This document shows positions 5,087 through 49,149 of a DNA stretch of 64,000 nt, one piece after another (within the stretch, counting starts at the first letter, position 1; the number at the start of each line of letters is the position of its first letter). The DNA comes from Oscillospiraceae bacterium (GTDB taxonomy: Bacteria; Bacillota; Clostridia; Oscillospirales; CAG-382): the NCBI GenBank assembly GCA_015064895.1, contig SVRI01000002.1, positions 84,113 through 148,112 on the forward strand, read 5' to 3'. The translations under genes were made by a program, and so were the position numbers. The notes under the pieces are model-generated. The model saw nothing but the letters and a program-made list of their open reading frames with translations, was not told the origin of the DNA and made no database searches.

Positions 5087-5176
5087 TTAGTACCTCTGTA
5101 AAAATTCATTACTATATATTGTATCACAGATGCATTTCTTTGTAAAGGGTTTTTTCACTCAAATACTTTTTAGGTC

Positions 5177-5205
5177 AAAAAAACAGCCGCCCGGTCGGGC
5201 GGCTG
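5177..5205 (-). terminator. Rho-independent terminator after the acidic lipoprotein gene
   Basis: Hairpin cagccgccc-ggtc-gggcggctg (5184-5205). The A-run at 5177-5183 on plus gives a U-tail on minus. Confidence 0.7.
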
Positions 5206-5240
5206 CAAAAACTATTATGCAAAACTATGCCATGAAACGA

Positions 5241-6119
5241 TTAGGACATTGTATCCGTATCGACAAGCCATTCGCCATCAACATTGACAACTGTGATTTC
5301 AGCAGTCTCGGTCAGCAATTCGACATCATATGCCGCACTCTCTATAACCTTAACCATATATTCGGTCATATAGGGAATCAATGCATCAATCATTTCGTCT
5401 TCTGTCATGTCTTCGGTGATAACTCCTTCTTCAAGTGCCTGCATTGCCAATGCCGCACCATCATCTTCACCCATCATAGTCATTATGTCAATGTTGTCAA
5501 AATCGGGTGTGTAAAGTTCAACCTCGAACACAGCTTCCTCTTCGTCTGCACTGAGACATTCAATGATTTCATAATCCATATCTTCTATCAAATCAATGTA
5601 AAGGGCTCTGGTTGCATCAACAACTGTAACAGCATTTGCTTCACCAAGTGTTTCAGCAAACCAAGTTTCCATATCAAGACCTTCTATGATTGAATCGGCA
5701 AGATCATCTGCACATGTGATTCCGCTGTTTTCATATTCGCCGGGATCGGTTGTATATTCCACCATACCTTCAAAATCGCAGGCGACCAAGCAGTCAAGAC
5801 AGTTAACCAAAGCTTCTTCTGCTGCTTCTTCGGGAGATTTTTCTTCTACAACCGGCTTGTCTTCATTCTTGTCCTTCTTGACATCATTCTTCTTGCCCTC
5901 GTCGTTTTTAACGTCTTCAGCATCAGACTTTTTGTCTTCATCTTCTTCATCATCTTCGTTTTCTTCGTCGCTATCTTTCTTATCCTTTTCGTCTTCATCT
6001 TCTTCGTCGTCTTCATCCTCGACTCTTGAAGCAGAAGTATCTTCAGAGCAGGAAACGGCTGTGAAGATTACCGCCATACCGAGCATAAGTGCAATCAAAA
6101 TTTTCAATAAGCTTTTCAT
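5241..6119 (-). CDS. lipoprotein with long D/E/K-rich linker, function unknown
   Basis: 292 aa. Signal peptide with lipobox MKSLLKILIALMLGMAVIFTAVSC, then about 90 aa of low-complexity acidic sequence and a globular C-terminal part. I recognise no family. Confidence 0.7.
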   Translation of the reverse strand: MKSLLKILIALMLGMAVIFTAVSCSEDTSASRVEDEDDEEDEDEKDKKDSDEENEDDEEDEDKKSDAEDVKNDEGKKNDVKKDKNEDKPVVEEKSPEEAAEEALVNCLDCLVACDFEGMVEYTTDPGEYENSGITCADDLADSIIEGLDMETWFAETLGEANAVTVVDATRALYIDLIEDMDYEIIECLSADEEEAVFEVELYTPDFDNIDIMTMMGEDDGAALAMQALEEGVITEDMTEDEMIDALIPYMTEYMVKVIESAAYDVELLTETAEITVVNVDGEWLVDTDTMS

Positions 6120-10263: not shown

Positions 10264-10311
10264 TACAAACAAAAATCTGCTCTAAAGGGTCTTCATACAG
10301 GAAATAAATTA

Positions 10312-10810
10312 AAGTCAGCGAGTTTTTTGCTTGCTGGCTTTTTTATATTATTCTTTCTGTACTTTTGCCCCGATGCAAAAGTACCAAAAAATCTCCACTC
10401 AAAAAGAGGGGATGGCTCATTCGGGAGGAATAAAGTACAAAAAGGCAAATTTTGACTAGGACAAATGAAACCAAACACTTCTACGAAGCCGTCAAAATTT
10501 GAACATCTACAAACTTCAATGATACTGCCGCCCTCATTCCGCTGACTTCCCCTCTTTCGCCGTGGTGGCTTAACTTCCCTCTCTTGGTGTTGGTGCAAAT
10601 CTGAAGTAAATTCGGTTGGTTGGATTGAATGTGTTCAGCCGATGTATCCCAAGCGATGCCGGGTGCGTTTTCGCGGAAATAAGGTTTGAAACTCTGTAAA
10701 CACTTACCCGCGTTGTGAGAGGTAAGCCGCCGCAGGTCGGGAAAGCCCGACCACCGCAGTGACGAAATACTCCTCTATGTACAAAGAAAGGCGTACCGAA
10801 GTACGCCTTA
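10312..10810 (+). repeat. family A large modular structured repeat, copy 1 (candidate ncRNA or MITE-like element)
   Basis: Collinear with the minus strand of 49111-48692 and partly with 16487-16716. Parts: H0 terminator-like hairpin 10312-10340; H1 gtacttttgc/gcaaaagtac 10359-10384; helix aaagagggga (10403-12) with tcccctcttt (10548-57); inner helix caaattttgac (10445-55) with gtcaaaatttg (10491-501); helix 10564-10583 with 10717-10733; hairpin gtcgggaaagcccgac 10736-51; terminal hairpin 10787-10810. Confidence 0.75.
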
Positions 10811-10829
10811 AAATTCATTCAGCCCTAAG

Positions 10830-14649: not shown

Positions 14650-14785
14650 CCTACTTTCTCTTTCGCAGAGAAAGTAGGCAAAGAGAACTCGCATTTTGCA
14701 CCTTTCTGCAAAGATTTAATATTCTGTTTATCACTCGATTGGTTTACCGTTCGACCGCCATATATCCAAGCGGTCGAACTCATTA
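14650..14785 (-). repeat. family B bipartite hairpin element, copy B1 (the entire whiA-dnaE intercistronic region)
   Basis: Minus-strand reading: TAATGAG, then hairpin 1 (gttcgaccg / loop cttggatatatgg / cggtcgaac, 14779-14749), about 70 nt, then hairpin 2 (cctactttctct / gcgaa / agagaaagtagg, 14678-14650). It aligns end to end with 21084-20947. Confidence 0.8.
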
Positions 14786-16395: not shown

Positions 16396-16486
16396 TTATT
16401 CATTATAAGTATAGCATGGAAATAGAGCTTTGTGAAGTGTTTTTTTACTTTTAATAGCAAAATTTTATAAAACCGTATCATTTTTC

Positions 16487-16810
16487 ATTTCTGTTCTTTT
16501 GTCCCGAAACAAAAGAACCAAAAATTCTCCACTCAAAAAGAGGGGATGGCTCATTCGGGAAAAGCAAAATGCAAAAAGGCAAATTTTGACTAGGACAAAT
16601 GAAACCAAATACTTCTACGAAGCCGTCAAAATTTGGGTATCGTCAAACTTCATTTATACTGCCGCCCGCCTTGCGCTGACTTCCCCTCTTTCGCCGTGGC
16701 GGCTTAACTCCTCTCACTGTTTGTGCGACACCAATGATTGGCGAACAAATAAAATTTCCCGTGAATTTGCTGTCGGGCTTTCCCGACCCGTGGCGGCTTA
16801 ACTCCTCTCA
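16487..16810 (+). repeat. family A modular structured repeat, copy 2
   Basis: H1 gttcttttgt/acaaaagaac at 16493-16518. Helix aaagagggga (16537-46) with tcccctcttt (16682-91). The 23-nt motif ccgtggcggcttaactcctctca occurs twice as a perfect direct repeat (16694-16716, 16788-16810). Hairpin gtcgggctttcccgac at 16772-87 is the inverse complement of 10736-51. Confidence 0.75.
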
Positions 16811-16837
16811 TTCAGTGTAGTGCAAGATATAATGATG

Positions 16838-16866: not shown

Positions 16867-17058
16867 CAACTTGCTACATGCTACACAAAATTAAATTATT
16901 TTCACTGCTAATAGTGTGTATTTTTTTAGGTAAAAATGCACGCTCTATCCGTCATACTGTTAGTAGTGGATTGATTTTGTGTAGCAACAAGCGGAGCTGC
17001 GTTTTTCGTGTGTGGCTCTGTTTGGGCTACACACTTTTTTATTTTAGGAGGTATTTCC

Positions 17059-19080
17059 ATGAAAAAACGAGTTATTATTCTGTTATCACTCTTAATGTGT
17101 CTGTTTTTTGCTTTTTCCACATCTGCAACTGTAGTAGATTCCGGAACTTGCGGTGATAATTTAACATGGACTTTTGATGATATAGGAACGCTTACTATCA
17201 GTGGTACGGGGGATATGTATAATTGGCGGTTCGAAGATGCTGAGCCAGAGTACGATGCACCGTGGTATCGTTACAGAGAAACGATAGATAATGTTATTGT
17301 AGAAGCAGGTGTAACAAGCATAGGTAATCAGGCGTTTAGTTGCTTCCGACTTGTATTATATTATGAAAGCATAGGCGGTCCTCTTACAAGCATAAGCATT
17401 CCCGATACCGTGGTAAAAATCGGTGAACGGGCATTCGAACATTGTTCAAGCCTTGAATCAATAGTAATTCCAAACAGTGTAACCAGTATTGGAAATAGAG
17501 CGTTCAATTGTTGTACAAGCCTTAAAGAGATATTCATTCCTGCAAGTGTAACAAGCCTTGGACGTCAAGTGATCGGGGGACTAGTAAGCCAAGACGAGGT
17601 GATTTACGATTACGCTGAAGGAGACTTTGGCGGCACTGTACTCGGAGGTTGCACAAGTCTTGAAAGCATTACAGTTGATTCAAACAATAAAATGTATTCT
17701 AATGATGAAAGAGGTGTTTTATTTAATAAGGACAAAACAATACTTATTAAATACCCTATCGGAAATAAAGCAACTTCTTATAAAATCCCCGACGGCGTAA
17801 CAATCATTGGCAGAGGTGCATTCGAAGGTTGTTCAAATCTTAAGGAAATAATTATTCCTGAAGGTGTAACATGTATAAGCAGTTATGCATTCGAAGGTTG
17901 TTCAAATCTTAAGGAAATAATTATTCCTGAAAGCGTAATAAGCGTTGACTACGGGGCGTTCGAAGATTGCACAAACCTCGAAAGCGTTGATGTTGGAAAT
18001 AGCATAACAATCATTGATGAAAGTGCGTTTGACGGTTGCACAAGCCTTAAAAACATAACTGTTGCTGAAAATAACGAGTTATATTCAAAAGATGAAAGAG
18101 GTGTTTTGTTTAATAAGGACAAAACAATACTTATAAAATATCCAGTTAAAATTGAAGGAACTTCTTATGAAATTCCCGACGGTGTAACAAAAATTAACGA
18201 TTACGCATTCAAAGGATGCACAAGTCTTGAAGAAGTATTAATTCCTGACGGTGTAACAAGTATTGGATATTCTGCTTTCGAGGATTGCACAAGACTTAAA
18301 GCAATAGTCATTCCCGACAGTGTAACGGGTATTGGTGAACGTGCGTTTTATGGTTGTACAAATCTTAAAAGTGTAAAAATTGGTAGTAGAGTAACAAATA
18401 TAGGTGGTATGTACGCATTTGCATTTTGCACAAGTCTTGAATCGATAGAAATTCCCGAAAGCGTCACATACGTAGGGCAATTTTCATTTATGTATTGTAG
18501 GAATCTAAAAAAAGCAACTGTTTTGAGCAGAAATGCAGAATTCAGTTTTAGTATAGATGACGTGTTTGGACGTTCAAATCCCGTCATCTACGGCTACAAA
18601 GGTTCAACGGCGGAAACGGAAGCAAAAGAATACAACCGCCCGTTTGTTGCCCTTTCCGCCACCCCCACAAACGCAAAAGTACTCATCAACGGCAAAGAAG
18701 TTGCATTTACAGCCTACAACATCGGCGGCAACAACTACTTCAAACTCCGTGATGTTGCAATGGCACTAAACGGCAGTGAAAAGAATTTCAACGTAGGTTG
18801 GGACAGCACCAACAATGCAATTTCTCTTACTTCAAACCAAAGCTACACATCGGTCGGCGGCGAACTCATTGTTGATGCAAATGCTACCTCAACAGAACCT
18901 ATCGTTACAAATTCAAGAGTTTACAAGGATAGCGAGCCCGTTTCATTCATTGCGTTCAACATCGGTGGAAACAACTACTTCAAGCTTCGTGATATTGGCA
19001 AAGCTTTTGATTTCGGTATCGGTTGGGACAATGAGACTAAAACCATTACCATTGACACAAGCATAGGTTATACCGAATAA
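17059..19080 (+). CDS. secreted BspA-type leucine-rich-repeat surface protein with two C-terminal stalk-like repeats
   Basis: ORF 17008..19080 trimmed to ATG 17059 (AGGAGG 7 nt upstream; signal peptide MKKRVIILLSLLMCLFFAFSTSA). About 15 units of the ~23-aa repeat IP..V..IG..AF..C..L. The C-terminus has two copies of a module ..NGK/S..V.F.A(Y/F)NIGGNNYFKLRD.. resembling copper-amine-oxidase-N-like stalk domains. Confidence 0.8.
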   Translation: MKKRVIILLSLLMCLFFAFSTSATVVDSGTCGDNLTWTFDDIGTLTISGTGDMYNWRFEDAEPEYDAPWYRYRETIDNVIVEAGVTSIGNQAFSCFRLVLYYESIGGPLTSISIPDTVVKIGERAFEHCSSLESIVIPNSVTSIGNRAFNCCTSLKEIFIPASVTSLGRQVIGGLVSQDEVIYDYAEGDFGGTVLGGCTSLESITVDSNNKMYSNDERGVLFNKDKTILIKYPIGNKATSYKIPDGVTIIGRGAFEGCSNLKEIIIPEGVTCISSYAFEGCSNLKEIIIPESVISVDYGAFEDCTNLESVDVGNSITIIDESAFDGCTSLKNITVAENNELYSKDERGVLFNKDKTILIKYPVKIEGTSYEIPDGVTKINDYAFKGCTSLEEVLIPDGVTSIGYSAFEDCTRLKAIVIPDSVTGIGERAFYGCTNLKSVKIGSRVTNIGGMYAFAFCTSLESIEIPESVTYVGQFSFMYCRNLKKATVLSRNAEFSFSIDDVFGRSNPVIYGYKGSTAETEAKEYNRPFVALSATPTNAKVLINGKEVAFTAYNIGGNNYFKLRDVAMALNGSEKNFNVGWDSTNNAISLTSNQSYTSVGGELIVDANATSTEPIVTNSRVYKDSEPVSFIAFNIGGNNYFKLRDIGKAFDFGIGWDNETKTITIDTSIGYTE

Positions 19081-23716: not shown

Positions 23717-23802
23717 TTTTTTACCCGACCTTTTTTTCTGAAATATAATTTTGGCATCTCCAAAAATGCCAAATGATGAATTAGGAATAAGCAAAGAGTT
23801 TG

Positions 23803-23940
23803 GTCGGTCGGATTTATGCCGACCAAACGGGGTTATTTATGCGACACCGATGGCATGTTTTCGACAAAACATGCCCCGTGAATTCTTTTCTTTTTTGCTG
23901 ACTTTTTTCTTTTCAGCAAAGAAAAAAGTCAGTGGCAGCC
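23803..23940 (+). repeat. family B bipartite hairpin element, copy B3 (opposite orientation to B1 and B2)
   Basis: Plus-strand reading: GAG, then hairpin 1 (tttggtcgg / tcggatttatg / ccgaccaaa, 23807-35), ACGGGG, a middle hairpin at 23860-83 closed by acgggg/ccccgt, then hairpin 2 (ctgacttttttcttt / tcagc / aaagaaaaaagtcag, 23906-40). Confidence 0.7.
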
Positions 23941-26704: not shown

Positions 26705-26745
26705 CTTGAGTTTGCATCGTAGCGTTTATGCGATGCAAACGGGGT
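26705..26745 (+). repeat. family B hairpin-1 module only, copy B4
   Basis: tGAGtttgcatcg / tagcgtttatg / cgatgcaaaCGGGGTTA (stem 26709-17 with 26729-37). The flanks and loop match 23803-23845, but the stem sequence is different and still complementary. Confidence 0.65.
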
Positions 26746-26762
26746 TAGTTACGCGATTAATA

Positions 26763-27569
26763 TTATTTGTTCTTATCAGAAGCTTTGCCCGCGAAATTGC
26801 CTGCGGCGGCTCGCCGTGCAATAAAATGCAATCTTTCATTTACATTTTCGTCTGCCCCTGAAAAGTCCATGCCGCCGAAAGAGTATACCTTTTCAAAGCC
26901 TGCTTCCTTAAGGTATGCACGTATATTCTTTTCGGTATACATCCTTTCCTTATTATCTTCATCGTGGCGTGAGTATGTACCGTCTTCGTTTTCGATAAAG
27001 AATGAAAGATAAAAATCGCAGATTTTCTTTTCTTCATCATAGAAGTTCTGCCATGCACAGAGTACCCCATCATCTTCAAGGACATAAGCATTGTCGGCAT
27101 AGATATTTTCAAACTTATACTTTGAGTTTACGTCAAAGACAAACACACCGCCGTCGACAAGTATATCGTATGCACTCTTAAAGCATTCCTTGACGCTTTT
27201 GGGAGTCAGCAGGCAGTTTACGCTGTCAAGAAGGCAGATTACGGCACCCGCTTTATTTGAAGCTGTAAACGAGCACATATCCTGTTTTGCGAAAATTACA
27301 TTTCTGCATCCCTTTTCAAATGCCTTGTTGTCGGCAATTGACAGCATATCCTCCGAAAGGTCGCTGGCGGTAACTTTATAACCGCGTTTTTCAAGTTCAA
27401 TGGCAACGCTACCCGTACCGCATGCAATTTCGCAAACGTGTTTTACCTCACACTCTGCATACTTTTCAAAGCATTCTTCACAAAAGTCTGCCCAATCTTT
27501 CGGGTCAACATCGGCGTTGAGTCTGTCGTAAACTTCAGACAGATACTGTCCGTAGCCTTTATTCTTCAT
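26763..27569 (-). CDS. class I SAM-dependent methyltransferase
   Basis: 268 aa. Motif I VCEIACGTGSVAIELEKRGYKVTASDLSEDML. Substrate unknown. Confidence 0.75.
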   Translation of the reverse strand: MKNKGYGQYLSEVYDRLNADVDPKDWADFCEECFEKYAECEVKHVCEIACGTGSVAIELEKRGYKVTASDLSEDMLSIADNKAFEKGCRNVIFAKQDMCSFTASNKAGAVICLLDSVNCLLTPKSVKECFKSAYDILVDGGVFVFDVNSKYKFENIYADNAYVLEDDGVLCAWQNFYDEEKKICDFYLSFFIENEDGTYSRHDEDNKERMYTEKNIRAYLKEAGFEKVYSFGGMDFSGADENVNERLHFIARRAAAGNFAGKASDKNK

Positions 27570-29632: not shown

Positions 29633-29676
29633 AGCAATTGTAATGCTTTTTATTTAATTCAAAGGAGTTGTTTGTT

Positions 29677-31089
29677 TTGAAATTGAAACGAATATTATTT
29701 GTTTTACTTGCATTTATTTCACTTCTTGCCATTTGCTCCTGCAAAAAAGATGAAGACAAAAAATCTACATACGTTCCTGTAGCAGGTGACGAATACTGGC
29801 TCGGTCACAATCCTCAGGAAGACATGAAAGGTTATCAATTCAGAATTCTTTCCAGAAAAGGCATGAAAAGCGATCAGTATGCTGAAGAACAGACCGGTGA
29901 CATTATCAACGATGCCATTTACAAGAGGAACGAAACTGTAAAGGGTTATTTCAACTGTGATGTCGTTTCAATTGAAAGCTCATCAGGCAGTGCCGATGAT
30001 GCCATCAACTCCATTCTTGCGGGTGATGACCAGTATGACATCATTTTCCCTCACTCAAGATCAGCATTCCAGTATGCTGTTCAGGATGCTCTTGTAAATT
30101 TCAATGACATAAAAACCATCCACCTTGACAAGTCCTGGTGGTCGCAGGATATTATTGATTCATGTAATGTAAACGGACATCTTTACGTTCTTGACGGCGA
30201 TATCTCCACACACAGACTTCAGTATGCATTCTGTATGTTCTTCAACAAGAGAATCTTTGACGAACTCGGTATTGAATATCCTTACCGGATGGCTCTTGAC
30301 GGCACATGGACATTTGATGAGTTTTCAAAGCTTGTAAAGAAGGGTTCAAAGGACCTCAACGGTGACGGTATTCTTAAGCCCGAAGACGACCAGTTCGGTT
30401 ATTACACAAGTAACTGGTACGGACCTATCAACGTACTTTATACGGGCGGTCAGAGAATTTATTCCAAAAATGCGGCAGGAGTACCTTATATATCTCTCAA
30501 TTCCAACAAGACTGTGGAAATTTTCTCAGAATTCTTTAAGCTTACCGATTCCGACGATGTCTATATTTACAATCAGATAAGCAATGAAAGCGACCCTGCA
30601 GGAAATCCCTTCAATGAAGGCCGTTCAATGTTTGCAGACAAGGGCCTTGGTAATGCGAAGGCTATGAGAAGCATGAACGACGAATTCGGTATTCTCCCTT
30701 GGCCCAAGTTCACCGAGGAAGACGTATATGCAACTGTAGTAAACGGTCATGCAAGCCTTATGGTTATGCCTATAACCGTTGCTGACAAACAGAAATCCGG
30801 TAAAATTATCGAAGCACTCTGTGCTATCGGTAACAAGGAAGTTATTCCTGCATTCTACGATGTATCACTTAAAACAAAATTCTCTAGAGACGCCGAATCC
30901 GAAGCAATGATTGATATCATAAAAGATTCCATCATCTACGACCTCGGTTACGTTTCCGGCGGTGTATTGAATTCTGTAGGTTCGTCACTTTCCAAGAGCA
31001 GCAACCATGACTTCGCTCAATTCTATGCTCAGAACGAATCCAAGGCTCAGTCAGACCTTCAGAGCTTCCTTGAAGCTTACGGTTCATAA
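29677..31089 (+). CDS. ABC-type extracellular solute-binding lipoprotein (family-1 SBP-like), paralog 1
   Basis: ORF 29668..31089. TTG 29677 is the best start (AAAGGAG 9 nt upstream) and gives MKLKRILFVLLAFISLLAICSC with a lipobox. SBP-like features: NKRIFDELGIEYP..DGTWTFDEFSKLVKKGSKDLNGDG. Confidence 0.8.
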   Translation: MKLKRILFVLLAFISLLAICSCKKDEDKKSTYVPVAGDEYWLGHNPQEDMKGYQFRILSRKGMKSDQYAEEQTGDIINDAIYKRNETVKGYFNCDVVSIESSSGSADDAINSILAGDDQYDIIFPHSRSAFQYAVQDALVNFNDIKTIHLDKSWWSQDIIDSCNVNGHLYVLDGDISTHRLQYAFCMFFNKRIFDELGIEYPYRMALDGTWTFDEFSKLVKKGSKDLNGDGILKPEDDQFGYYTSNWYGPINVLYTGGQRIYSKNAAGVPYISLNSNKTVEIFSEFFKLTDSDDVYIYNQISNESDPAGNPFNEGRSMFADKGLGNAKAMRSMNDEFGILPWPKFTEEDVYATVVNGHASLMVMPITVADKQKSGKIIEALCAIGNKEVIPAFYDVSLKTKFSRDAESEAMIDIIKDSIIYDLGYVSGGVLNSVGSSLSKSSNHDFAQFYAQNESKAQSDLQSFLEAYGS

Positions 31090-31101
31090 TATTAAGATTT
31101 G

Positions 31102-31134
31102 AAAGCCCGTTTTCCAACGGGCTTTTCTTTTTTT
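31102..31134 (+). terminator. Rho-independent terminator after SBP paralog 1
   Basis: aaagcccgt (31102-10) pairs with acgggcttt (31117-25), followed by tcttttttt. Confidence 0.8.
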
Positions 31135-31225
31135 CGATTTATTATTTTTTTACAATTTGTTATCCGCATTCTAACAAAGTGGTGTTAATGTATAGTGAGA
31201 GTTAGGCTTTTTAGGGGGTAATATT

Positions 31226-32632
31226 TTGAATATTAAGAGTATTTTTTTAATCCTTCTTGCGGTATTATCTATTTTTGCTGTCAGCTCATGCAAGAAGAAA
31301 GACTCCGGAATTTCTACATACGTTCCTGTTGCCGGTGATGAGTACTGGCTGGGTCACAATCCGCAGGAAGATATGGACGGATATCAATTCAGAATCCTTT
31401 CGAGAAAAGGCATGAAAAGTGACCAGTATGCAGAAGAAGAAACCGGCGATATTATCAATGATGCAGTTTTCAAAAGAAATGAAACGGTAAAGGGTTATTT
31501 CAACTGCGACATCATTACAATAGAAAGCTCTACAAACAAGGCCGACGATGCCATCAACTCAATCCTTGCAGGCGATGACCAGTATGACATTCTTCTTCCC
31601 CACTCAAGATCGGCTTTCCAGTATGCAATCCAGGATGCACTTGTTAACTTCAACGATGTAAAGACAATCGATACATCCAAGGATTGGTGGTCGAAGGATA
31701 TTATTGACTCCTGTAACATAAACGGTTATCTCTACGTTCTTGACGGTGACATCTCTACCCACAGACTTGAATACGGCTTTGCCATGTACTTCAACAAGAG
31801 GATTTTTGACGAGCTTGGTCTTGAATATCCTTATCAGATGGCTATTGACGGTACATGGACATTTGACGAATTTTCAAAGCTCGTAAAGAAGGGTTCAAAG
31901 GACCTCAACGGCGACGGTCTCATCAAGCCCGAGGACGACCAGTACGGTTACTATTCATGGCATGCCTTCGGACCCATTCAGGTGCTTTATACGGGCGGTC
32001 AGAGAATCTATTCCAAGAGTGCTACGGGTGTTCCCTATCTTTCTTTAAACTCAACAAAAACTTTAAATCTTTATTCCGATTTCTTCAGACTTTGCGATTC
32101 CGATGACGTATTACTCTGTGCTGCACAGAATGCTCCGTCAGAAAATTTATTCACTGCAGGACGTGCAATGTTCGCAGACAACGGTCTCGGTCAGGCAAAA
32201 ACATTTAGAAACATGAGCGATGAATTCGGTATTCTCCCCTGGCCCAAGTACACAGCAGAAGATGAATACAAGACAGTTATCAACGGTCATGCAAGCCTTC
32301 TCGTTATGCCCATCACTGTTCCGGACAAGCAAAAATCGGGCAAGATTATCGAAGCACTCTGTGCTCTTGGCAACAAAGAAGTAGTTCCTGCTTTCTATGA
32401 TGTATCTCTTAAAACAAAGTTTTCGAGAGACGCCGAATCCGAAGCAATGATTGATATTATCAGAGACTCTCTCATATATGACCTCGGCTATGTTTCGGGC
32501 GGTACATTCCAGAATGTCGGTGAAAGACTTGCATCAATGGGTAACCGTGACTTTGCCTCCTATTATGCACAGAACGAATCCAAGGCTCAGACAGATCTTC
32601 AGAACTTCCTCGCATCCTACGGCAAATTATAA
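31226..32632 (+). CDS. ABC-type extracellular solute-binding lipoprotein, paralog 2
   Basis: 468 aa. TTG start with AGGGGG 7 nt upstream. Signal and lipobox MNIKSIFLILLAVLSIFAVSSC. Full-length alignment with paralog 1. Confidence 0.8.
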   Translation: MNIKSIFLILLAVLSIFAVSSCKKKDSGISTYVPVAGDEYWLGHNPQEDMDGYQFRILSRKGMKSDQYAEEETGDIINDAVFKRNETVKGYFNCDIITIESSTNKADDAINSILAGDDQYDILLPHSRSAFQYAIQDALVNFNDVKTIDTSKDWWSKDIIDSCNINGYLYVLDGDISTHRLEYGFAMYFNKRIFDELGLEYPYQMAIDGTWTFDEFSKLVKKGSKDLNGDGLIKPEDDQYGYYSWHAFGPIQVLYTGGQRIYSKSATGVPYLSLNSTKTLNLYSDFFRLCDSDDVLLCAAQNAPSENLFTAGRAMFADNGLGQAKTFRNMSDEFGILPWPKYTAEDEYKTVINGHASLLVMPITVPDKQKSGKIIEALCALGNKEVVPAFYDVSLKTKFSRDAESEAMIDIIRDSLIYDLGYVSGGTFQNVGERLASMGNRDFASYYAQNESKAQTDLQNFLASYGKL

Positions 32633-32644
32633 AATGCAACAGCA

Positions 32645-32677
32645 AAAGGCTTGTCTTACGGCAAGCCTTTATTTTTG
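32645..32677 (+). terminator. Rho-independent terminator after SBP paralog 2
   Basis: aaaggcttg (32645-53) pairs with caagccttt (32662-70), followed by atttttg. Confidence 0.8.
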
Positions 32678-32706
32678 TACATTTTTTATTCTTTACAAAT
32701 TAGATG

Positions 32707-32735
32707 TTGACTACAGTGAAAAAACTGTGTAAAAT
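32707..32735 (+). promoter_or_regulatory. promoter of SBP paralog 3
   Basis: TTGACT (32707-12), 17 nt, then TAAAAT (32730-35). Confidence 0.6.
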
Positions 32736-32769
32736 ACAATATGAAGTTCATATTTAGGAGGTATATCCT

Positions 32770-34179
32770 TTGAGAATCAAAAGATTATCATGTATTCTTC
32801 TTGCCGTAGCATCTTTATTTATAATCAGTGCGTGCAAGAAAGATGACAAAGACAGAACCACATACGTTCCTGTAGCCGGTGACGAATATTGGTTAGGTCA
32901 CATTGAACAGGAAGACATGCAGGGATATCAGTTCAGAATACTTTCAAGAAAAGGCATGGTAGATGACCAGTATGTTGAAAAAGAAACAGGCGATATCATC
33001 AACGATGCCGTCTACAAGAGAAATGAAACGGTAAAGGGATATCTTAATATCGACATAGTTTCAATCGAAAGTTCCACTGACACCGCGTCCGACGCAATCA
33101 ACTCAATTCTTGCGGGCGATGACCAGTATGACGTAATGTTCCCCCACTCAAGAGCGGCTTTCCAGTATGCTGTTCAGGATGCACTTGTAAACTTCAATGA
33201 CATTAAAACAATTGACACCTCTAAACCCTGGTGGTCACAGGATATCATAGATTCATGTAATGTAAACGGACATCTTTATGTTCTTGACGGCGACATTCAG
33301 ACTGACAGACTTTTCTATGCGTTCTGTATGTTCTTCAACAAGAGAATCTTTGACGAGCTGGGTGTTGAATATCCTTACCAGATGGCACTTGACGGCACAT
33401 GGACATTTGATGAGTTTTCAAAGCTTGTAAAGAAGGGCTCAAAAGACCTCAACGGTGACGGTTTGCTCAAGCAAGAAGAAGACCAGCTCGGCTACTACAC
33501 AAGAGAATGGTACGGTCCTATCCAGGCACTTTATTCGGGTGGACAAAGAATCTATTCCAAGGATGCAAGAGGCATACCCGTTCTCTCACTCAACTCCAAT
33601 AAAACAGTTGATATTTTCTCCGATTTCTTCAAGCTCGCCGACTCAGATGACGTTTTCCTTCAGTTGACTCCCGGAAGACTTGCAAAGGAAGACTTATTCC
33701 CTGTAGGACGTGCAATGTTTGCAGACAGAGGTCTCGGCTCTGCCCAGGCACTCAGAAGTATGGATGACGAATTCGGTATTCTCCCCTGGCCAAAGTTTTC
33801 TGCCGATGATGAATACAAGACGGTGGTTAACGGTCATGCATGTTTACTTACAATGCCCATCACTGTTCCCGATAAGCAGAAGTCAGGTAAGATTATTGAA
33901 GCCCTCTGTGCCCTCGGCAACAAGGAAGTACTTCCTGCATTCTATGAAGTATCACTAAAGACCAAGTTCTCTAGAGATGCCGAATCCGAAAAGATGATTG
34001 ACATTATCAAGGACTCCATTATCTACGACCTCGGTTACGTTTCCGGCGGTACAATGAACTCGGTCGGTGCTACTCTTGCTCAGAGTAACAACCATGATTT
34101 CTCTCAGTTCTATGCACAGAATGAATCAAAGGCTCAGACAGACCTTCAGAGTTTCCTTAAATCCTACGGTAAAATGTAA
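32770..34179 (+). CDS. ABC-type extracellular solute-binding lipoprotein, paralog 3
   Basis: 469 aa. TTG start with AGGAGG 8 nt upstream. MRIKRLSCILLAVASLFIISAC. Confidence 0.8.
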   Translation: MRIKRLSCILLAVASLFIISACKKDDKDRTTYVPVAGDEYWLGHIEQEDMQGYQFRILSRKGMVDDQYVEKETGDIINDAVYKRNETVKGYLNIDIVSIESSTDTASDAINSILAGDDQYDVMFPHSRAAFQYAVQDALVNFNDIKTIDTSKPWWSQDIIDSCNVNGHLYVLDGDIQTDRLFYAFCMFFNKRIFDELGVEYPYQMALDGTWTFDEFSKLVKKGSKDLNGDGLLKQEEDQLGYYTREWYGPIQALYSGGQRIYSKDARGIPVLSLNSNKTVDIFSDFFKLADSDDVFLQLTPGRLAKEDLFPVGRAMFADRGLGSAQALRSMDDEFGILPWPKFSADDEYKTVVNGHACLLTMPITVPDKQKSGKIIEALCALGNKEVLPAFYEVSLKTKFSRDAESEKMIDIIKDSIIYDLGYVSGGTMNSVGATLAQSNNHDFSQFYAQNESKAQTDLQSFLKSYGKM

Positions 34180-34184
34180 TTTTC

Positions 34185-34211
34185 AAACTCCCCTTTTTGG
34201 GGAGTTTTTTT
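34185..34211 (+). terminator. Rho-independent terminator after SBP paralog 3
   Basis: aaactcccc/ggggagttt followed by a T-run. Nearly identical to the terminator at 36104-36132. Confidence 0.85.
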
Positions 34212-34212
34212 A

Positions 34213-34241
34213 TTGACTCATTCATGAAACAGTGATATAAT
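34213..34241 (+). promoter_or_regulatory. promoter of SBP paralog 4
   Basis: TTGACT (34213-18), 17 nt, then TATAAT (34236-41). Confidence 0.65.
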
Positions 34242-34265
34242 CTATTACAATAAGGAGGTTTGATT

Positions 34266-36098
34266 ATGAAAAACATTCGCAAACTGACACTTACATTACT
34301 TTTAATCTCACTTATAGTTTCAATTATCGCATGTACTTCTGCAGATACAAAGGAAACAGATCCGGAGGATGCTGTATGGGAAGGCTATGATGATGTTGAG
34401 TTTGTTAAGTTTCTGGGAAACAGCAGTGCAGATGAGGTAGAAGTCACGGTAAAGGAAGGTTGGGGCAAGTCGGATGAGCTTAACGAAGAAGATGACTTAT
34501 CCGAGGATGCAAAGGCTTATACATACACCTATGAGCGTGTTTCGGGCAAAGATATTGTAGAAAAAATCCACTTTTTTATGATTCTTGAAGACAATGAGCT
34601 TACGCCTGCGGGTTGTTACAACGAAACCACCCATGAGGAGCTGGACAAAGGCGACACCGAGGATATACTCGAAGGGCTGATTGACGAATTTGAACTGTAC
34701 AACGAAAAGAAAAGCTCAAGCAACAATAGTAATTATCCCGACAATAACAATGCAGAATCTTTACGTCCCAACAATACAACATATCTTCCTAATTCAGGCT
34801 ATGAAAACTGGCTTGGTCACATTGAACAGGAAAACATGGACGGTTATACGTTCAGAATCCTTTCAAGAAAAGGCATGGTAGATGACCAGTATGTTGAAGA
34901 AGAAACAGGTGACATTGTCAACGATGCTGTCTACAAAAGAAACGAAATTGTAAAGGGTTACTTCAATATTGACATTGTTTCAATCGAAAGCTCCACTGAC
35001 ACAGCTTCCGACGCAATCAACTCAATTCTTGCGGGCGATGACCAGTACGATATCATGTTCCCTCACTCAAGAACAGCATTCCAGTATGCTGTTCAGGATG
35101 CTCTTGTCAATTTCAATGATGTATACACAATCGATACATCAAAAGAATGGTGGTCACAGGATATTGTTGACTCATGTAACGTAAACGGTAACCTTTACGT
35201 ACTTGACGGTGATATCTCAACTCACAGACTTTATTACTGCTTTGCAATGTACTTCAACAAGAGAATATTTGATGAACTCTGTCTTGAATATCCCTATCAG
35301 ATGGCTCTTGACGGCACATGGACATTTGACGAATTCTCAAAGCTTGTAAAGAAGGGTTCAAAGGACCTCAACGGTGACGGTCTTCTCAAGCAGGAAGATG
35401 ACCAGCTCGGCTATTATACAAGAGAATGGTTCGGTGCAATTCAGGTTCTTTATTCAGGTAACCAGAGAATCTACTCAAAGGATGCAAGAGGAATTCCGAG
35501 ACTTTCGCTTAATACACCTAAAACAGTTCAGTTGTTTTCCGACTTCTTTAAACTGACCGATTCCGATGATGTATTCATGCAGATTTCACCCGGAAATCTC
35601 GCAAAGGAAGACTTGTTCCCTGCAGGTCGTGCAATGTTTGCAGACAAGGGTCTCGGCTCTGCTCAATCACTCAGAAGCATGGACGATGAATTCGGTATCC
35701 TTCCCTGGCCTAAGTTCTCTGAAGAAGATGAGTATGAAACGATTGTAAACGGTCATGCAAGCCTTATGGTTATGCCCATCACTGTTCCGGACAAACAAAA
35801 ATCCGGTAAGATTGTAGAAGCACTCTGTGCCATCGGTAACAAGGAAGTTATTCCTGCATTCTACGAAGTATCACTTAAAACAAAATTCTCTAGAGACGCC
35901 GAATCCGAAGCAATGTTTGATATCATAAAAGATTCCATCATCTACGACCTCGGTTACGTTTCGGGAGGTACAATGAACTCTGTTGGTGCTACTCTTGCTC
36001 AGAGAGACAACCACGATTTCTCTCAGTTCTATGCACAGAATGAATCAAAGGCTCAGTCAGACCTTCAGAACTTCTTAAGCTCTTACGGTAAAATGTAA
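34266..36098 (+). CDS. ABC-type extracellular solute-binding lipoprotein, paralog 4, with an extra ~150-aa N-terminal region
   Basis: ATG 34266 (GGAGG 7 nt upstream). MKNIRKLTLTLLLISLIVSIIAC. About 150 aa of acidic, unique sequence and an S/N-rich linker precede the SBP body shared with the other paralogs (from ..YLPNSGYENWLGH). Confidence 0.8.
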   Translation: MKNIRKLTLTLLLISLIVSIIACTSADTKETDPEDAVWEGYDDVEFVKFLGNSSADEVEVTVKEGWGKSDELNEEDDLSEDAKAYTYTYERVSGKDIVEKIHFFMILEDNELTPAGCYNETTHEELDKGDTEDILEGLIDEFELYNEKKSSSNNSNYPDNNNAESLRPNNTTYLPNSGYENWLGHIEQENMDGYTFRILSRKGMVDDQYVEEETGDIVNDAVYKRNEIVKGYFNIDIVSIESSTDTASDAINSILAGDDQYDIMFPHSRTAFQYAVQDALVNFNDVYTIDTSKEWWSQDIVDSCNVNGNLYVLDGDISTHRLYYCFAMYFNKRIFDELCLEYPYQMALDGTWTFDEFSKLVKKGSKDLNGDGLLKQEDDQLGYYTREWFGAIQVLYSGNQRIYSKDARGIPRLSLNTPKTVQLFSDFFKLTDSDDVFMQISPGNLAKEDLFPAGRAMFADKGLGSAQSLRSMDDEFGILPWPKFSEEDEYETIVNGHASLMVMPITVPDKQKSGKIVEALCAIGNKEVIPAFYEVSLKTKFSRDAESEAMFDIIKDSIIYDLGYVSGGTMNSVGATLAQRDNHDFSQFYAQNESKAQSDLQNFLSSYGKM

Positions 36099-36103
36099 TT
36101 TTC

Positions 36104-36132
36104 AAACTCCCCTTTTTTGGGGAGTTTTTCTT
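36104..36132 (+). terminator. Rho-independent terminator after SBP paralog 4
   Basis: aaactcccc-tttttt-ggggagttt followed by ttc tt. Confidence 0.8.
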
Positions 36133-36182
36133 ATTTCAGCAATACCAAACAACTTTCTTAATATTGATGAAACAAAAAATCG

Positions 36183-36211
36183 TTGATATGTTAACAGAAT
36201 TTTGGTATAGT
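36183..36211 (+). promoter_or_regulatory. promoter of SBP paralog 5
   Basis: TTGATA (36183-88), 17 nt, then TATAGT (36206-11). Confidence 0.6.
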
Positions 36212-36250
36212 TATGGTGTATTGCAAGAATTTATTAAGGAGGTACATACC

Positions 36251-37660
36251 TTGAAAATCAAAAGATTGCTTTGTTTTGCTGCCCTGATTCTCTCAGTTGT
36301 TGCTTTCAGTGCATGTAAAAACGAGGATGAAGAAATATCCAAGTACATTCCTAATGCCGGCGATGAATATTGGCTCGGTCACATCCCACAGGAAAACATG
36401 GACGGTTACGAATTCAGAATCCTTTCAAGAAAAGGCATGGTAGATGACCAGTATGTTGAAGAAGAAACAGGTGATATCATCAACGATGCCGTTTTTAAAA
36501 GAAATGAAACAGTAAAGGGTTACTTTAACATTGACATTGTTTCAATTGAAAGCTCCTCCAATACTGCGGATGATGCTATCAGTTCCATCCTTGCAGGTGA
36601 TGACCAGTATGACATCATGCTGCCCCACTCAAGAACAGCATTCCAGTATGCTATTCAGGATGCACTCGTAAACTTCAACGATATCAAAACAATCGATACA
36701 TCAAAAGAATGGTGGTCTCCCGATATTATCGACTCTTGTAACGTAAACGGACATCTTTACGTTCTCGACGGCGATATTTCTACTCACAGACTTTACTACT
36801 GCTTTGCGATGTACTTCAACAAGAGAATCTTTGATGAACTCGGTCTTGAATATCCTTATCAGATGGTTTTGGATAATAACTGGACATTTGACGAATTTTC
36901 AAAGCTCGTAAAGAAGGGTTCAAAGGACCTCAACGGTGACGGTCTTCTCAAGCAGGAGGACGACCAGCTCGGCTATTATACAAGAGAATGGTTCGGTGCA
37001 ATTCAGGTTCTTTATGCAGGTAACCAGAGAATTTACGCAAAGGATGCCGCAGGCATTCCCAGACTTACACTTAACTCTCCTAAGACAGTTCAGGTATTCT
37101 CTGACTTCTTCAAGCTCGCCGACTCCGACGATGTATTCCTTCAGATTTCACCCGGTAAGGTTGCTAAGGAAGACTTGTTCCCTGCAGGTCGTGCAATGTT
37201 CGCCGATAATGACCTTGGTCAGGCTCAGCAGCTCAGAGCCATGGATGACGAATTCGGTATTCTCCCCTGGCCTAAGTTCTCTGCCGATGATAAGTATGAA
37301 ACAGTTGTAAACGGTCATGCAAGCCTTCTTACAATGCCTATCACGGTTCCCGATAAGCAGAAGTCAGGCAAGATTATTGAAGCGCTTTGTGCTCTCGGTA
37401 ATAAGGAAGTTATTCCCGCGTTCTACGAAGTATCTCTTAAGACAAAGTTCTCAAGAGATACAGAATCCGAAAAGATGATTGACATTATCAAGGACTCTAT
37501 CATCTACGACCTCGGTTACGTTTCCGGCGGTACAATGAACTCTGTTGGTGCTACTCTTGCAAATCAAAGCAATCATGACTTTGCTCAGTTCTATGCTCAG
37601 AACGAATCAAAGGCTCAGGTTGACCTTCAGAACTTCTTAAGCTCTTACGGTAAAATGTAA
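36251..37660 (+). CDS. ABC-type extracellular solute-binding lipoprotein, paralog 5
   Basis: ORF 36164..37660 trimmed to TTG 36251 (AAGGAGG 8 nt upstream), which gives MKIKRLLCFAALILSVVAFSAC, matching the N-termini of the other paralogs. The upstream part of the ORF overlaps the promoter. Confidence 0.8.
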   Translation: MKIKRLLCFAALILSVVAFSACKNEDEEISKYIPNAGDEYWLGHIPQENMDGYEFRILSRKGMVDDQYVEEETGDIINDAVFKRNETVKGYFNIDIVSIESSSNTADDAISSILAGDDQYDIMLPHSRTAFQYAIQDALVNFNDIKTIDTSKEWWSPDIIDSCNVNGHLYVLDGDISTHRLYYCFAMYFNKRIFDELGLEYPYQMVLDNNWTFDEFSKLVKKGSKDLNGDGLLKQEDDQLGYYTREWFGAIQVLYAGNQRIYAKDAAGIPRLTLNSPKTVQVFSDFFKLADSDDVFLQISPGKVAKEDLFPAGRAMFADNDLGQAQQLRAMDDEFGILPWPKFSADDKYETVVNGHASLLTMPITVPDKQKSGKIIEALCALGNKEVIPAFYEVSLKTKFSRDTESEKMIDIIKDSIIYDLGYVSGGTMNSVGATLANQSNHDFAQFYAQNESKAQVDLQNFLSSYGKM

Positions 37661-37706: not shown

Positions 37707-37716
37707 TGTATAAATT

Positions 37717-38160
37717 AAAACCGAAACTAACGTGTAGTCTCGGTTTTGCCGCGGGGCTTCCCCTTACAAAACACATAGTCTTTTGCCTGAGTTTGTCCGC
37801 TTTCGTTTATGGCGGACAAACGGTACTTCACTCGGGCAATAAAAAAACAAAACCGAAACTAGAGTATAGTCTCGGTTTTGCCGCGGGGCTTCTCCTTACA
37901 AAACACATAGTCTTTTGCCTAAGTTTGTCCGCTTTCGTTTATGGCGGACAAACGGTGATTCACTCGGGCAATAAAAAAATAAACCGAAACTAGAGTATAG
38001 TCTCGGTTTTGCCGTGGGGCTTCCCCTTACAAAACACATAGTCATTTGCCTGAGTTTGTCCGCTTTCGTTTATGGCGGACAAACGGTGCTTCACTCGGGC
38101 AATAAAAAAATAAACCGAAACCAACGTGTAGTCTCGGTTTTGCCGTGGGGCTTCCCCCAC
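37717..38160. repeat. tandem array, 3 full units plus 1 partial unit of 131-132 bp, directly abutting the 3' end of tRNA-Val
   Basis: Unit starts (aaaccgaaac..) at 37718, 37850, 37981 and 38112. Units are near-identical. Each holds an 11-bp hairpin aaaccgaaact/agtctcggttt (on the minus strand this is followed by atttttttatt, which is terminator-like) and a family B hairpin-1 module (tttgtccgc / tttcgtttatg / gcggacaaa at 37792-37820, 37924-52 and 38055-83). Confidence 0.9.
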
Positions 38161-38236
38161 TGGTGGACGATAAGGAACTCGAATCCCTGACCACTCGCAC
38201 GTCAAGCGAGTGCTCTACCAACTGAGCTAATCGTCC
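38161..38236 (-). tRNA. tRNA-Val (anticodon GAC), CCA encoded
   Basis: Manual cloverleaf: acceptor GGACGAT/ATCGTCC; D-arm GCTC-AGTTGGTA-GAGC; anticodon arm CTCGC-TTGACGT-GCGAG (GAC at 34-36); variable loop TGGTC; T-arm AGGGA-TTCGAGT-TCCTT; then A-CCA. Total 76 nt. Confidence 0.9.
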
Positions 38237-48463: not shown

Positions 48464-48487
48464 TAAAAAATGTTTCCTTAGGGATAG

Positions 48488-48512
48488 AAGGCGTACTGCG
48501 GTACGCCTTTTG
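48488..48512 (+). terminator. Rho-independent terminator after alr (also the terminal hairpin module of the family A repeat)
   Basis: aaggcgtac (48488-96) pairs with gtacgcctt (48501-09), followed by ttgtcg. A homologous hairpin sits at 10787-10810. Confidence 0.65.
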
Positions 48513-49113
48513 TCGTTCTTTTGTCCCGAAACAAAAGAACCAAAAATTCTCCGCTCAAAAGGAGAGAGGGCTCGGTTGAGGTTATGGCAAAGACGGAAAA
48601 GGTTCGTCTTGACCACGGGATGGGTCAAGACTCAGGTTCGCAATAAGTAAGCTTTCGCAATCTCAACCTACGCTGACTTCTCTCCTTTGCCGCGGCGGCT
48701 TACCTCTCACAACGCGGGTAAGTGTTTACAGGATTTAAGCCTTAATTATCGCGAAAATGCCAAAGACATAACTTGGTATACTCTGTTTAACCACATTTAA
48801 TCCAACCAACCGAATTAACTTTGAATTTGCACCAACACCAAGAGAGAGGAGTTAAGCCGCCACGGCGAAAGAGGGGAAGTTAGCGGAATGAGGGCGGCAG
48901 TATCATTTAAGTTTGAAGAAATTCAAATTTTGACGGCTTGGTAGAAGTAGCTTGTTTCATTTGTCCTAGTCAAAATTTGCCTTTTGTACTTTGCTTTTCC
49001 CGAATGAGCCATCCCCTCTTGTTGAGTGGGCGTTTTTGGTACTTTTGTCGATACAAAAGTACAGAAAAAGAATAAACACAAAAAAGCCAGCAAGCACAAA
49101 CTTACTGGCTTTT
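48513..49113. repeat. family A modular structured repeat, copy 3: two diverged units in inverted orientation around a shared 135-nt core
   Basis: Unit b is on the plus strand at 48515-48708. The core is 48709-48843. Unit a is on the minus strand at 49062-48844, with the H0 hairpin at 49084-49111. See the findings for helices and covariation. Confidence 0.8.
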
Positions 49114-49149
49114 ATTTGTTCCCTATATGAATACACCTTATGCTGTCTT

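Follow-up and report, generated by a model that had tools for sequence, protein, structure and literature searches.

Two facing copies of a structured interspersed repeat may make up the spacer between alr and YAcAr in an Oscillospiraceae genome

What fills the space between the convergent genes alr and YAcAr (formerly DUF2493) of an Oscillospiraceae bacterium (GenBank assembly GCA_015064895.1, contig SVRI01000002.1) is a question that its reading frames do not answer. The locus lies in a stretch of 64,000 nucleotides (positions 84,113 to 148,112 of that contig), which was analysed as a whole and is called the window below. An initial annotation had described the spacer as a gap of about 690 bp free of credible open reading frames (ORFs), filled by one composite RNA-like element of ~600 nt. 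The gap is 686 bp long (48464-49149), and the absence of a credible ORF was borne out: the overlapping ORFs are all of 76 amino acids (aa) or fewer, start mostly with TTG, and in no case keep their frame between copies. Protein coding was rejected, as the ORFs run through the copies on differing strands and in differing frames. We see about an even chance that the spacer consists of two tail-to-tail copies of a non-coding, non-autonomous structured interspersed repeat, similar to REP, BIME, REPIN, and NIME elements and belonging to a hairpin-pseudoknot-rod superfamily that is uncatalogued, being absent from Rfam and from RefSeq annotation.

The two copies, unit b on the plus strand and unit a on the minus strand (Table 1), each have a terminator-like hairpin on their 5' side. 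Comparison of the window with itself by BLAST aligned 10283-10733(+) with 49140-48692(−) at 84.6% over 456 nt (E 1e-135) and 10347-10583 with 16480-16715 at 88%. Unit a, described earlier as collinear with the copy at 10.5 kb, is 85% identical to 10359-10582 and 87% identical to 16488-16718. The start of unit b (48515-48573), whose hairpin was said to be shared with the copy at 16.5 kb, indeed matches 16493-16552 at 91.7% over the first 60 nt, and 82% identity to 16674-16717 is seen over its last ~40 nt (48671-48710); its interior bears no relation to the a-type and is also present in loci L002, L012, L033, and L041. As seen across the window, the 3' motif GCCGYGGYGGCTTAMC occurs six times against 0.06 expected by chance and the hairpin pattern three times against 0.01, and the total comes to four units and at least six fragments. 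The outer hairpins belong to the repeat, as had been proposed: 48488-48510 matches 10809-10787 in inverted orientation at 95.7%, in keeping with the inverted counterpart of its whole module at that place, and 49084-49111 falls within the long 10283-10733 match, its module being homologous to 10283-10341 and to copies in L039 and L010. A proposed second helix (48692-48708 with 48844-48861) is simply made up of the 3' modules of the two units, which are inverted to each other; the 135-nt core that it encloses is shared with the 10.5-kb copy, as stated, but not with the rest of the family, and the ~20 to 40 nt adjoining the tail of unit a are the sole part of it recurring in other loci.

A terminator scan marked 48483-48514(+) after alr, 49113-49082(−) after YAcAr, 10311-10341(+), and 10809-10788(−). 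The outer hairpins have the features of intrinsic terminators, namely a GC-rich stem-loop with a T-run behind it and a position 3' of a same-strand gene, and both window composites are enclosed by such inward-facing hairpins, which are part of the repeat itself. A promoter search found no promoter-like site in either composite.

Single-sequence folds of all units gave a 5' hairpin, P1, and a rod composed of P0 (CC-N-C with G-N-GG), P2, and a type-specific P3. Helix P2 reads aaagagggga/tcccctcttt at 10403-12/10548-57 and at 16537-46/16682-91, and aaaggagaga/tctctccttt in unit b (48558-67/48679-88), where three pairs are changed on both strands around an unrelated interior. Likewise, P1 reads GTA..TAC at 10359-84 and 49039-62 and GTT..AAC at 16493-518 and 48515-40. 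These double changes had been reported by the initial annotation at the same positions, and its view that pairing is kept through double substitutions holds in a larger sample, in which the P1, P0, and P2 strands were taken by fixed positional rules and pairs were counted over 28 distinct helix sets from ~10 species. Nine pairs in these helices are changed on both sides, 92.4% of the cells are paired compared with 85.1% in shuffles, and the covariation is 0.254 compared with 0.110 in shuffles (0 of 500 reach it) and at most 0.108 with a slid partner. Four fully compensated states were found for P2 and three for P0 (A-U, G-C, and C-G), the state of P0 being independent of the type of P2, and there are hardly any G-U pairs. 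Each of the two facing window units is perfectly complementary within itself but not to its partner. Overall, the pairing of the element is under selection.

These data bear on the possibility that the copies are old segmental duplications in neutral decay, with complementarity arising by chance or by hairpin-templated repair. This explanation was already disfavoured, and we consider its probability to be close to negligible. It would agree with the 10 to 15% divergence of the copies and with pairing that is Watson-Crick only, and quasi-palindrome correction, an established mechanism, could maintain complementarity in short stems. However, the compensated states of P2 and P0 join arms 100 to 180 nt apart, the ends and loops are conserved over ~10 species and P1 over phyla, and the self-pairing of the window units likewise speaks against it.

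The repeat is a family in rumen and gut Clostridia. Scanning species-representative genomes with the 5'-module pattern returned 47 loci, three of which are chance hits; the others come from ~10 ruminant or gut Clostridia metagenome-assembled genomes (MAGs), many of them at contig ends, and one MAG carries ~19 exact-pattern copies. We distinguished 40 full units of 139 to 225 nt with common ends. Their 5' half is ordered as P1 GTACTTTTG(loop)CAAAAGTAC, CCAAAAA, TCTCC-N-C, CTCAA, a purine strand, and TGGCTCG, and their 3' half as an interior of at least five unrelated types, CCGCTGAC, a pyrimidine strand, GCCG-Y-GG-N-GGCTTA(A/C)C, and a pyrimidine tail. The conserved part of P1 is GUACUUUUG/CAAAAGUAC, followed by an A-rich linker; the conserved unpaired stretches GGCUCG ... 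CGCUGAC border the variable domain, and GCCGYGGNGGCUUAAC with the pyrimidine tail closes the unit. The same 5' and 3' modules are found joined to all of these interiors, and recombinant units exist, for example one in L018 with broken P0 and P2. Units are usually preceded by a GC hairpin of their own, whose loop is UGCG or UUCG and which in many cases has a T-run behind it; before many copies the loop and flanks of this hairpin are the same, and the stems are different but complementary. Across L001-L047 (~330 kb), 91 UGCG-loop hairpins with a stem of at least 7 bp were counted, with varying but complementary stems and a constant loop and TTTCG flank. Downstream, the accompanying modules are TTGGTGTRGTGCAAAT and GAGTTTG-hairpin-CAAACGG. 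The orientation of the units to neighbouring genes is mixed, with 15 in the same and 21 in the opposite direction. One unit (L001, 3020-4059) lies directly 3' of smpB, a place where transfer-messenger RNA (tmRNA) is often encoded; ARAGORN found no tmRNA in this locus.

The single composite RNA of ~600 nt therefore gives way to two copies of a multi-copy modular repeat of 140 to 225 nt, a conclusion to which the mixed orientation, the lack of a promoter-like site, the inward terminators, and the presence or absence of whole composites between species (see below) also contribute. The initial annotation could name no known RNA family, and none emerged. At the gathering threshold, the 4227 Rfam models, including ROOL, GOLLD, raiA, OLE, HEARO/omega RNA, IS605-orfB, group II introns, and pistol, matched only a tRNA in the whole window; in E-value mode both window composites gave noise, with terminator hairpins as the best hits, and 29 metagenome loci of the wider superfamily gave only rRNA, tRNA, or noise. 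No match was found for either window composite in plasmid and phage collections by BLAST, nor for the 5'-module pattern in viral contigs, and literature searches made with descriptions and with sequence strings turned up no earlier account.

The 5' end of the unit connects this family to a broader group, which we define by GUACUUUUG-loop-CAAAAGUAC followed by CCAAAA(A), a loop complementary to the next bases, and then a long rod. All four window units have P1, CCAAAAA, and the rod and so belong to it. In the window family the pairing of the loop with downstream bases is of 3 bp only, and it covaries: coupling was seen in all 31 of 31 alpha/beta units, GAA occurring with UUC in 25 of 25 and GAU with AUC in 6 of 6. 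The P1 and CCAAAA pattern was found in at least 120 metagenome contigs (ocean, sediment, groundwater, soil, and human gut), where the loop is complementary to 4 to 7 nt past the A-run (for example, TCTTGAT/ATCAAGA, CATGAC/GTCAT, GCGG/CCGC, and ATTG/CAAT), with a mean best loop stem of 3.89 compared with 3.07±0.09 for shuffled partners. The loop pairing is either an H-type pseudoknot or an alternative hairpin, and it covaries in many lineages. A long rod follows P1 in all branches. Unannotated copies are also present on Bacteroidota plasmids, where P1 itself covaries and the rods carry UUAAC bulges and a AAACUCGC...GCUCAAACAG motif; homology between these or other branch motifs and those of the window rod (CUUAAC; GGCUCG/CGCUGAC) is suggested tentatively. 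The P1-only pattern matched 10 viral contigs.

Several copies of the superfamily stand at distinctive sites. Copies on RefSeq plasmids lie at 1486-1728 of L195 (Aureibacter tunicatorum plasmid pAT6) and 1396-1742 of L194 (a Chondrinema litorale plasmid), and one Bacteroidota plasmid copy occupies the space between cas7d and cas5d in a type I-D CRISPR operon, its P1 ending 15 nt before the cas5d start codon. In the tuf-rpsJ-rplC cluster of L120, an element (4991-5307) sits 10 nt past the rpsJ stop and is followed by a 93%-identical second copy of the last 29 to 36 nt of rpsJ, a 219-aa ORF without a Pfam match, and rplC; the repeated rpsJ end may have arisen as a long target duplication or as a scar of integration. 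Other copies lie directly 3' of tRNA or 23S-5S rRNA genes (L145 at 3337, 3753, and 4268; L114 at 1719; L070 at 1584), those of L145 being three tandem copies with a period of 420 to 515 nt.

We tentatively put forward, as a bolder and rather unlikely extension, that the window units represent a cross-phylum, uncatalogued class of mobile structured elements, in which a near-invariant 9-bp hairpin sits in a covarying pseudoknot and is followed by a rod with conserved bulges. Such an element would work in single-stranded form, as RNA or DNA; it could, for instance, be of a new type that processes itself or recruits an enzyme and places copies of itself in spacers within operons or close to terminators. 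Branches of the class occur in Clostridia, in Bacteroidota, and in several lineages without cultured members from groundwater, the sea, and soil.

The same structural features raise the main rival to an interspersed element, a new class of functional structured RNA, which we judge to be possible but on the whole improbable. Here the units would be transcribed by read-through or within operon transcripts and act through their fold, by self-cleavage or processing, by blocking exonucleases or insulating, or by binding protein, and their multi-copy status would be secondary. Covarying helices beside conserved unpaired nucleotides, the H-type loop pseudoknot with its A-rich linker covarying in many independent lineages, the UNCG-type (UGCG or UUCG) loops of the accompanying hairpins, and, in Bacteroidota copies, the conserved one-sided UUAAC bulges and the apical motif all agree with this explanation, as do copies within essential or co-transcribed operons (rpsJ-rplC and cas7d-cas5d) and after rRNA and tRNA genes. 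The region termed A10 also forms a better fold than its shuffles do on the P1-first strand (z of −4.2 compared with −1.5). However, for isolated units the opposite strand gave the slightly better fold (32 of 40 in Clostridia and 84 of 114 in metagenomes; p=1e-8), for which an excess of C over G could be the cause, and the entire composite forms a giant foldback that is equally good on either strand. Across the family alignments, the two largest clusters have similarly few G-U and A-C combinations, and in other clusters G-U is clearly in excess. Assigning a strand by G-U versus A-C counts, loop types, or sense and antisense energies was abandoned, as the signals conflict. Conserved bulges on one side only, together with the pseudoknot, speak for a single-stranded fold specific to one strand, and the Watson-Crick-only helices and lack of a promoter argue for action at the DNA level. 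Further points against an RNA class are the absence of a conserved promoter from copies lying, in the window, between inward-facing terminators, the mixed orientation to genes, the persistence of broken-helix recombinants such as that in L018, and a copy number that reaches dozens or perhaps hundreds in a small genome, which would be unusual for an RNA gene.

Comparison of genomes showed that composites come and go as wholes. In L054, a relative whose Alr is 75% identical, alr and YAcAr are separated by a 32-nt bidirectional terminator and the element is missing. Between L008 and L007 and between L011 and L006, composites of 500 to 800 nt, each consisting of two facing units with their outer hairpins, are present or absent as a whole, and no target duplication is visible at these filled and empty pairs. 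Orthologous sites can also be filled in both species with the same end modules and different interiors, as seen for the 16.5-kb copy and L037, which holds a short-type unit, and for L002 and L024, a pattern that suggests that copies recombine and exchange their cassettes. Assemblies of relatives break 65 to 300 nt past alr or the AP-endonuclease gene.

The element lacks the hallmarks of a miniature inverted-repeat transposable element (MITE) derived from a DDE transposon. The unit begins with GTACTTTTG... and ends with ...CTCCTCTCA and so lacks terminal inverted repeats, the inverted segments P0 and P2 being internal, and a direct-repeat scan of 149 to 170 copies showed only rare, long, variable repeats and no target-site duplication of fixed length. 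The initial annotation had proposed that insertion polymorphism with target-site duplications would mark a plain MITE; half of this was found, since polymorphism is present and both duplications and inverted repeats are absent. The long repeats themselves could indicate an element mobilised like a SINE (short interspersed element) or by template switching, through an RNA or replicative intermediate that leaves duplications of variable length. Imperfect direct repeats do bracket a few superfamily copies (29 to 36 nt in L120, at the rpsJ 3' end; 69 nt in L119; 56 nt in L100; 43 nt in L124). However, with tandem arrays excluded, only ~5 of 149 copies are bracketed, none of them from the window family, other repeat hairpins occur within some of the repeats, which may therefore be unrelated, and no reverse transcriptase is encoded nearby, so that we hold this origin to be very improbable.

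A protein partner was sought by clustering the ORFs beside ~50 Clostridia and ~130 metagenome copies and scanning recurrent or adjacent ones with Pfam. The neighbours encode oxidoreductases, hydrolases, SmpB, a ClpB-type ATPase, EF-Tu, S10, L3, and similar proteins; none of these ORFs was recognised as a transposase, reverse transcriptase, HUH, or TnpB protein, and no protein partner recurs. The window genes and the genes flanking the related loci are housekeeping genes only, none encoding a transposase, and neither the window nor ~330 kb of related loci holds a gene for RAYT, a Y1 transposase. The YAcAr protein was considered as a partner and rejected: it has homologues close to copies in L012 and L039, but neither their distance nor their orientation is constant. 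Likenesses to a triple helix, to Shine-Dalgarno/anti-Shine-Dalgarno mimicry, to Tn3 inverted repeats, and to Cas9 repeat/anti-repeat pairs were weighed on sequence only and dropped as unsupported.

These searches also bear on an origin as an IS200/IS605-type palindrome-associated transposable element (PATE), or as a remnant of a TnpB or IscB guide-RNA scaffold, moved as single-stranded DNA by a HUH/Y1 transposase that recognises P1 at both outer ends of a facing pair. Facing pairs do place a P1 hairpin near each outer end, inverted terminal repeats and target duplications are lacking as in the IS200/IS605 family, the hairpin sequence is conserved as the remainder diverges, near-pure Watson-Crick pairing fits a DNA hairpin, and on the other strand P1 and the pseudoknot would stand at the 3' end beside flanking DNA, much like a guide-RNA scaffold. 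We nevertheless regard it as very improbable, given that no conserved 4- to 5-nt target adjoins either end and the flanks are unconserved, that tnpA, tnpB, or iscB lies next to none of the ~170 copies examined, that most copies are single units with one P1, and that the Rfam HEARO and IS605-orfB models gave no match.

We return to the interspersed repeat, for whose non-autonomy the housekeeping-only neighbours, the absence of promoter-like sites, the inward terminators, and the mixed orientation were counted. Such elements would spread and persist at the DNA level, and some trans-acting factor may recognise their single-stranded fold, either as single-stranded DNA or as a transcript, which would explain a near-invariant P1 and conserved loops beside freely covarying stems. 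Interior cassettes would be swapped between copies by recombination across the conserved ends, and copies would build up where they are harmless or helpful. Where genes converge, as alr and YAcAr do, the hairpin and T-run upstream of the unit would serve the adjacent gene as its terminator; inside operons, copies would lie in the non-terminating orientation. Several observations weigh against this reading. A search confined to the window and the element loci found no mobilising enzyme. There are no terminal inverted repeats and no target-site duplications, either at the window copies or at the filled and empty pairs. Strains of the window's species lack polymorphism at two window loci and copies within a genome are 10 to 15% apart, which gives no hint of recent transposition. 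The conserved unpaired loops, one-sided bulges, and covarying pseudoknot fit functional RNA better than selfish DNA, and P1 is kept across phyla, whereas REP-like elements are normally lineage-specific.

Table 1. Coordinates of the repeat units and related modules in the window
Feature	Position	Strand	Composition and relations
Upstream module of unit b	48480-48514	+	AGGGA, GC hairpin GGCGTAC(UGCG)GTACGCC, T-run; terminator-like end of alr (terminator scan)
Unit b	48515-48712	+	P1 48515-48540; linker CCAAAAAT; P0 5' strand 48548-48554; P2 5' strand 48559-48567; variable b-type interior; P2 3' strand 48679-48687; P0 3' strand 48692-48698; CTTACC and pyrimidine tail to 48712
Spacer (core) between both tails	48713-48842	.	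Common to 10584-10716 only
Unit a	48843-49062	−	P1 49062-49039; P0 5' strand 49032-49026; P2 5' strand 49020-49012; a-type interior with AUUUUGAC/GUCAAAAU stem; P2 3' strand 48877-48869; P0 3' strand 48863-48857; CTTAAC and tail 48856-48843
Upstream module of unit a	49082-49140	−	AGGGAA, hairpin GCCAGTAAG..CTTGCTGGC, T-run; terminator-like end of YAcAr gene (terminator scan)
Sister composite	10283-10812	+	Upstream module/terminator 10283-10341; unit a 10359-10582; spacer 10584-10716; inverted solo 3' module 10717-10736; GGTCGGGAAAGCCCGACC hairpin; inverted UUCG hairpin/terminator 10809-10788
Third copy	16480-16811	+	Unit a 16493-16716; second module (TTGTGCGACACC...GTCGGGCTTTCCCGAC and 3' module) 16717-16811
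Solo kit modules	23791-23926	+	GAGTTTG-hairpin(TTTATG)-CAAACGG; GCGACACCGA..CCCGTGAATT
Four tandem 131-nt repeats from the same module kit	37709-38157	+	Abut tRNA gene 38164-38236 (−)

Modules of the same kit are also scattered through the window on their own. Besides the solo modules in the mutS/ylbF spacer listed in Table 1, similar pieces lie between hsp33 and a methyltransferase gene (26708-26806) and in the WhiA upstream region (14747-14784). The four tandem repeats carry GAGTTTG-hairpin-CAAACGG and GCCGYGGGGCTTCCCC, start 6 nt off the tRNA 3' end, and each bear a terminator-like hairpin on the tRNA strand. The third copy sits in a divergent promoter region and adjoins a gene for a BspA-type leucine-rich repeat (LRR) protein (17008-19080); this gene is missing from the syntenic region of L037 (5180-5510; MAG RGIG8792), where a small membrane-like ORF (~100 aa) takes its place and the repeat lies at the edge of the indel. 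Elsewhere in the window, five tandem paralogous genes (29668-37660; ~470 to 610 aa, period of ~1.55 kb, 61 to 87% DNA identity) form an array, one scanned member of which gave a weak SBP_bac_1 match.

If the proposed interpretation is true, a sizeable intergenic share of these rumen and gut Clostridia is built from one kit of structured modules, which would break assemblies, supply terminators, and reshuffle via cassette exchange. A 5' hairpin-pseudoknot that extends from rumen Clostridia to marine and soil bacteria and is missing from Rfam and RefSeq annotation would be a candidate for a new mobile-element mechanism or a new RNA class, and the P1 pattern would give annotators an explanation for many "empty" spacers.

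Among known systems, the likeness to pistol-type and other H-type pseudoknot RNAs, in which a hairpin loop pairs downstream across an A-rich linker, is a resemblance only: the window element has no Rfam match, a linker of 5 to 7 nt, a 9- to 10-bp stem of conserved sequence, and a long rod after it. BOX elements of pneumococcus and bcr elements of Bacillus cereus are intergenic, with A-B-C-type modules, conserved ends, a variable middle, and stable predicted folds, and the window repeat shares the modular end-middle-end build, the folding, and the intergenic site. However, sequences and hosts differ, BOX and bcr are genus-restricted, and we know of no pseudoknot described for either. In the NIME of Neisseria, considered here together with Correia elements, RS units are flanked by dRS3, a short conserved joint that in either orientation flanks modules of 50 to 200 nt and forms mosaics with them. 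The ~22-nt 3' module GCCGYGGNGGCTTAAC behaves as such a joint, in either orientation and flanking diverse modules; there is no sequence kinship and no evidence that phage or IS elements target it, and here the joint is part of a covarying long-range helix. REP, BIME, and REPIN elements are abundant non-coding intergenic palindromes, often arranged as inverted pairs at gene 3' ends or in convergent spacers, mosaic, long persistent at orthologous sites, and mobilised in trans. Those of Enterobacteria and Pseudomonas, which are associated with RAYT, resemble the window repeat in being intergenic, ORF-free, mosaic, in part arranged in inverted pairs, and lasting at orthologous sites. In contrast to their 20- to 40-nt palindromes, the window units are multi-helix rods of 140 to 225 nt with a 5' hairpin and pseudoknot; the family lacks a GTAG foot, no RAYT gene was seen, and the hairpin sequence is kept across phyla. 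The replicative unit of a REPIN is an inverted doublet; in the window family facing pairs recur, at 48.5 kb of the window and in L006 and L007, but most copies are single units. Several kinds of palindromic module recur extragenically in many copies and in varying order and orientation, as in an intergenic mosaic of the BIME or NIME type. On the best reading, the window repeat is the rumen and gut Clostridia branch of the hairpin-pseudoknot-rod superfamily and is functionally closest to REP, BIME, and REPIN elements and to NIME- and BOX-type intergenic mosaics.

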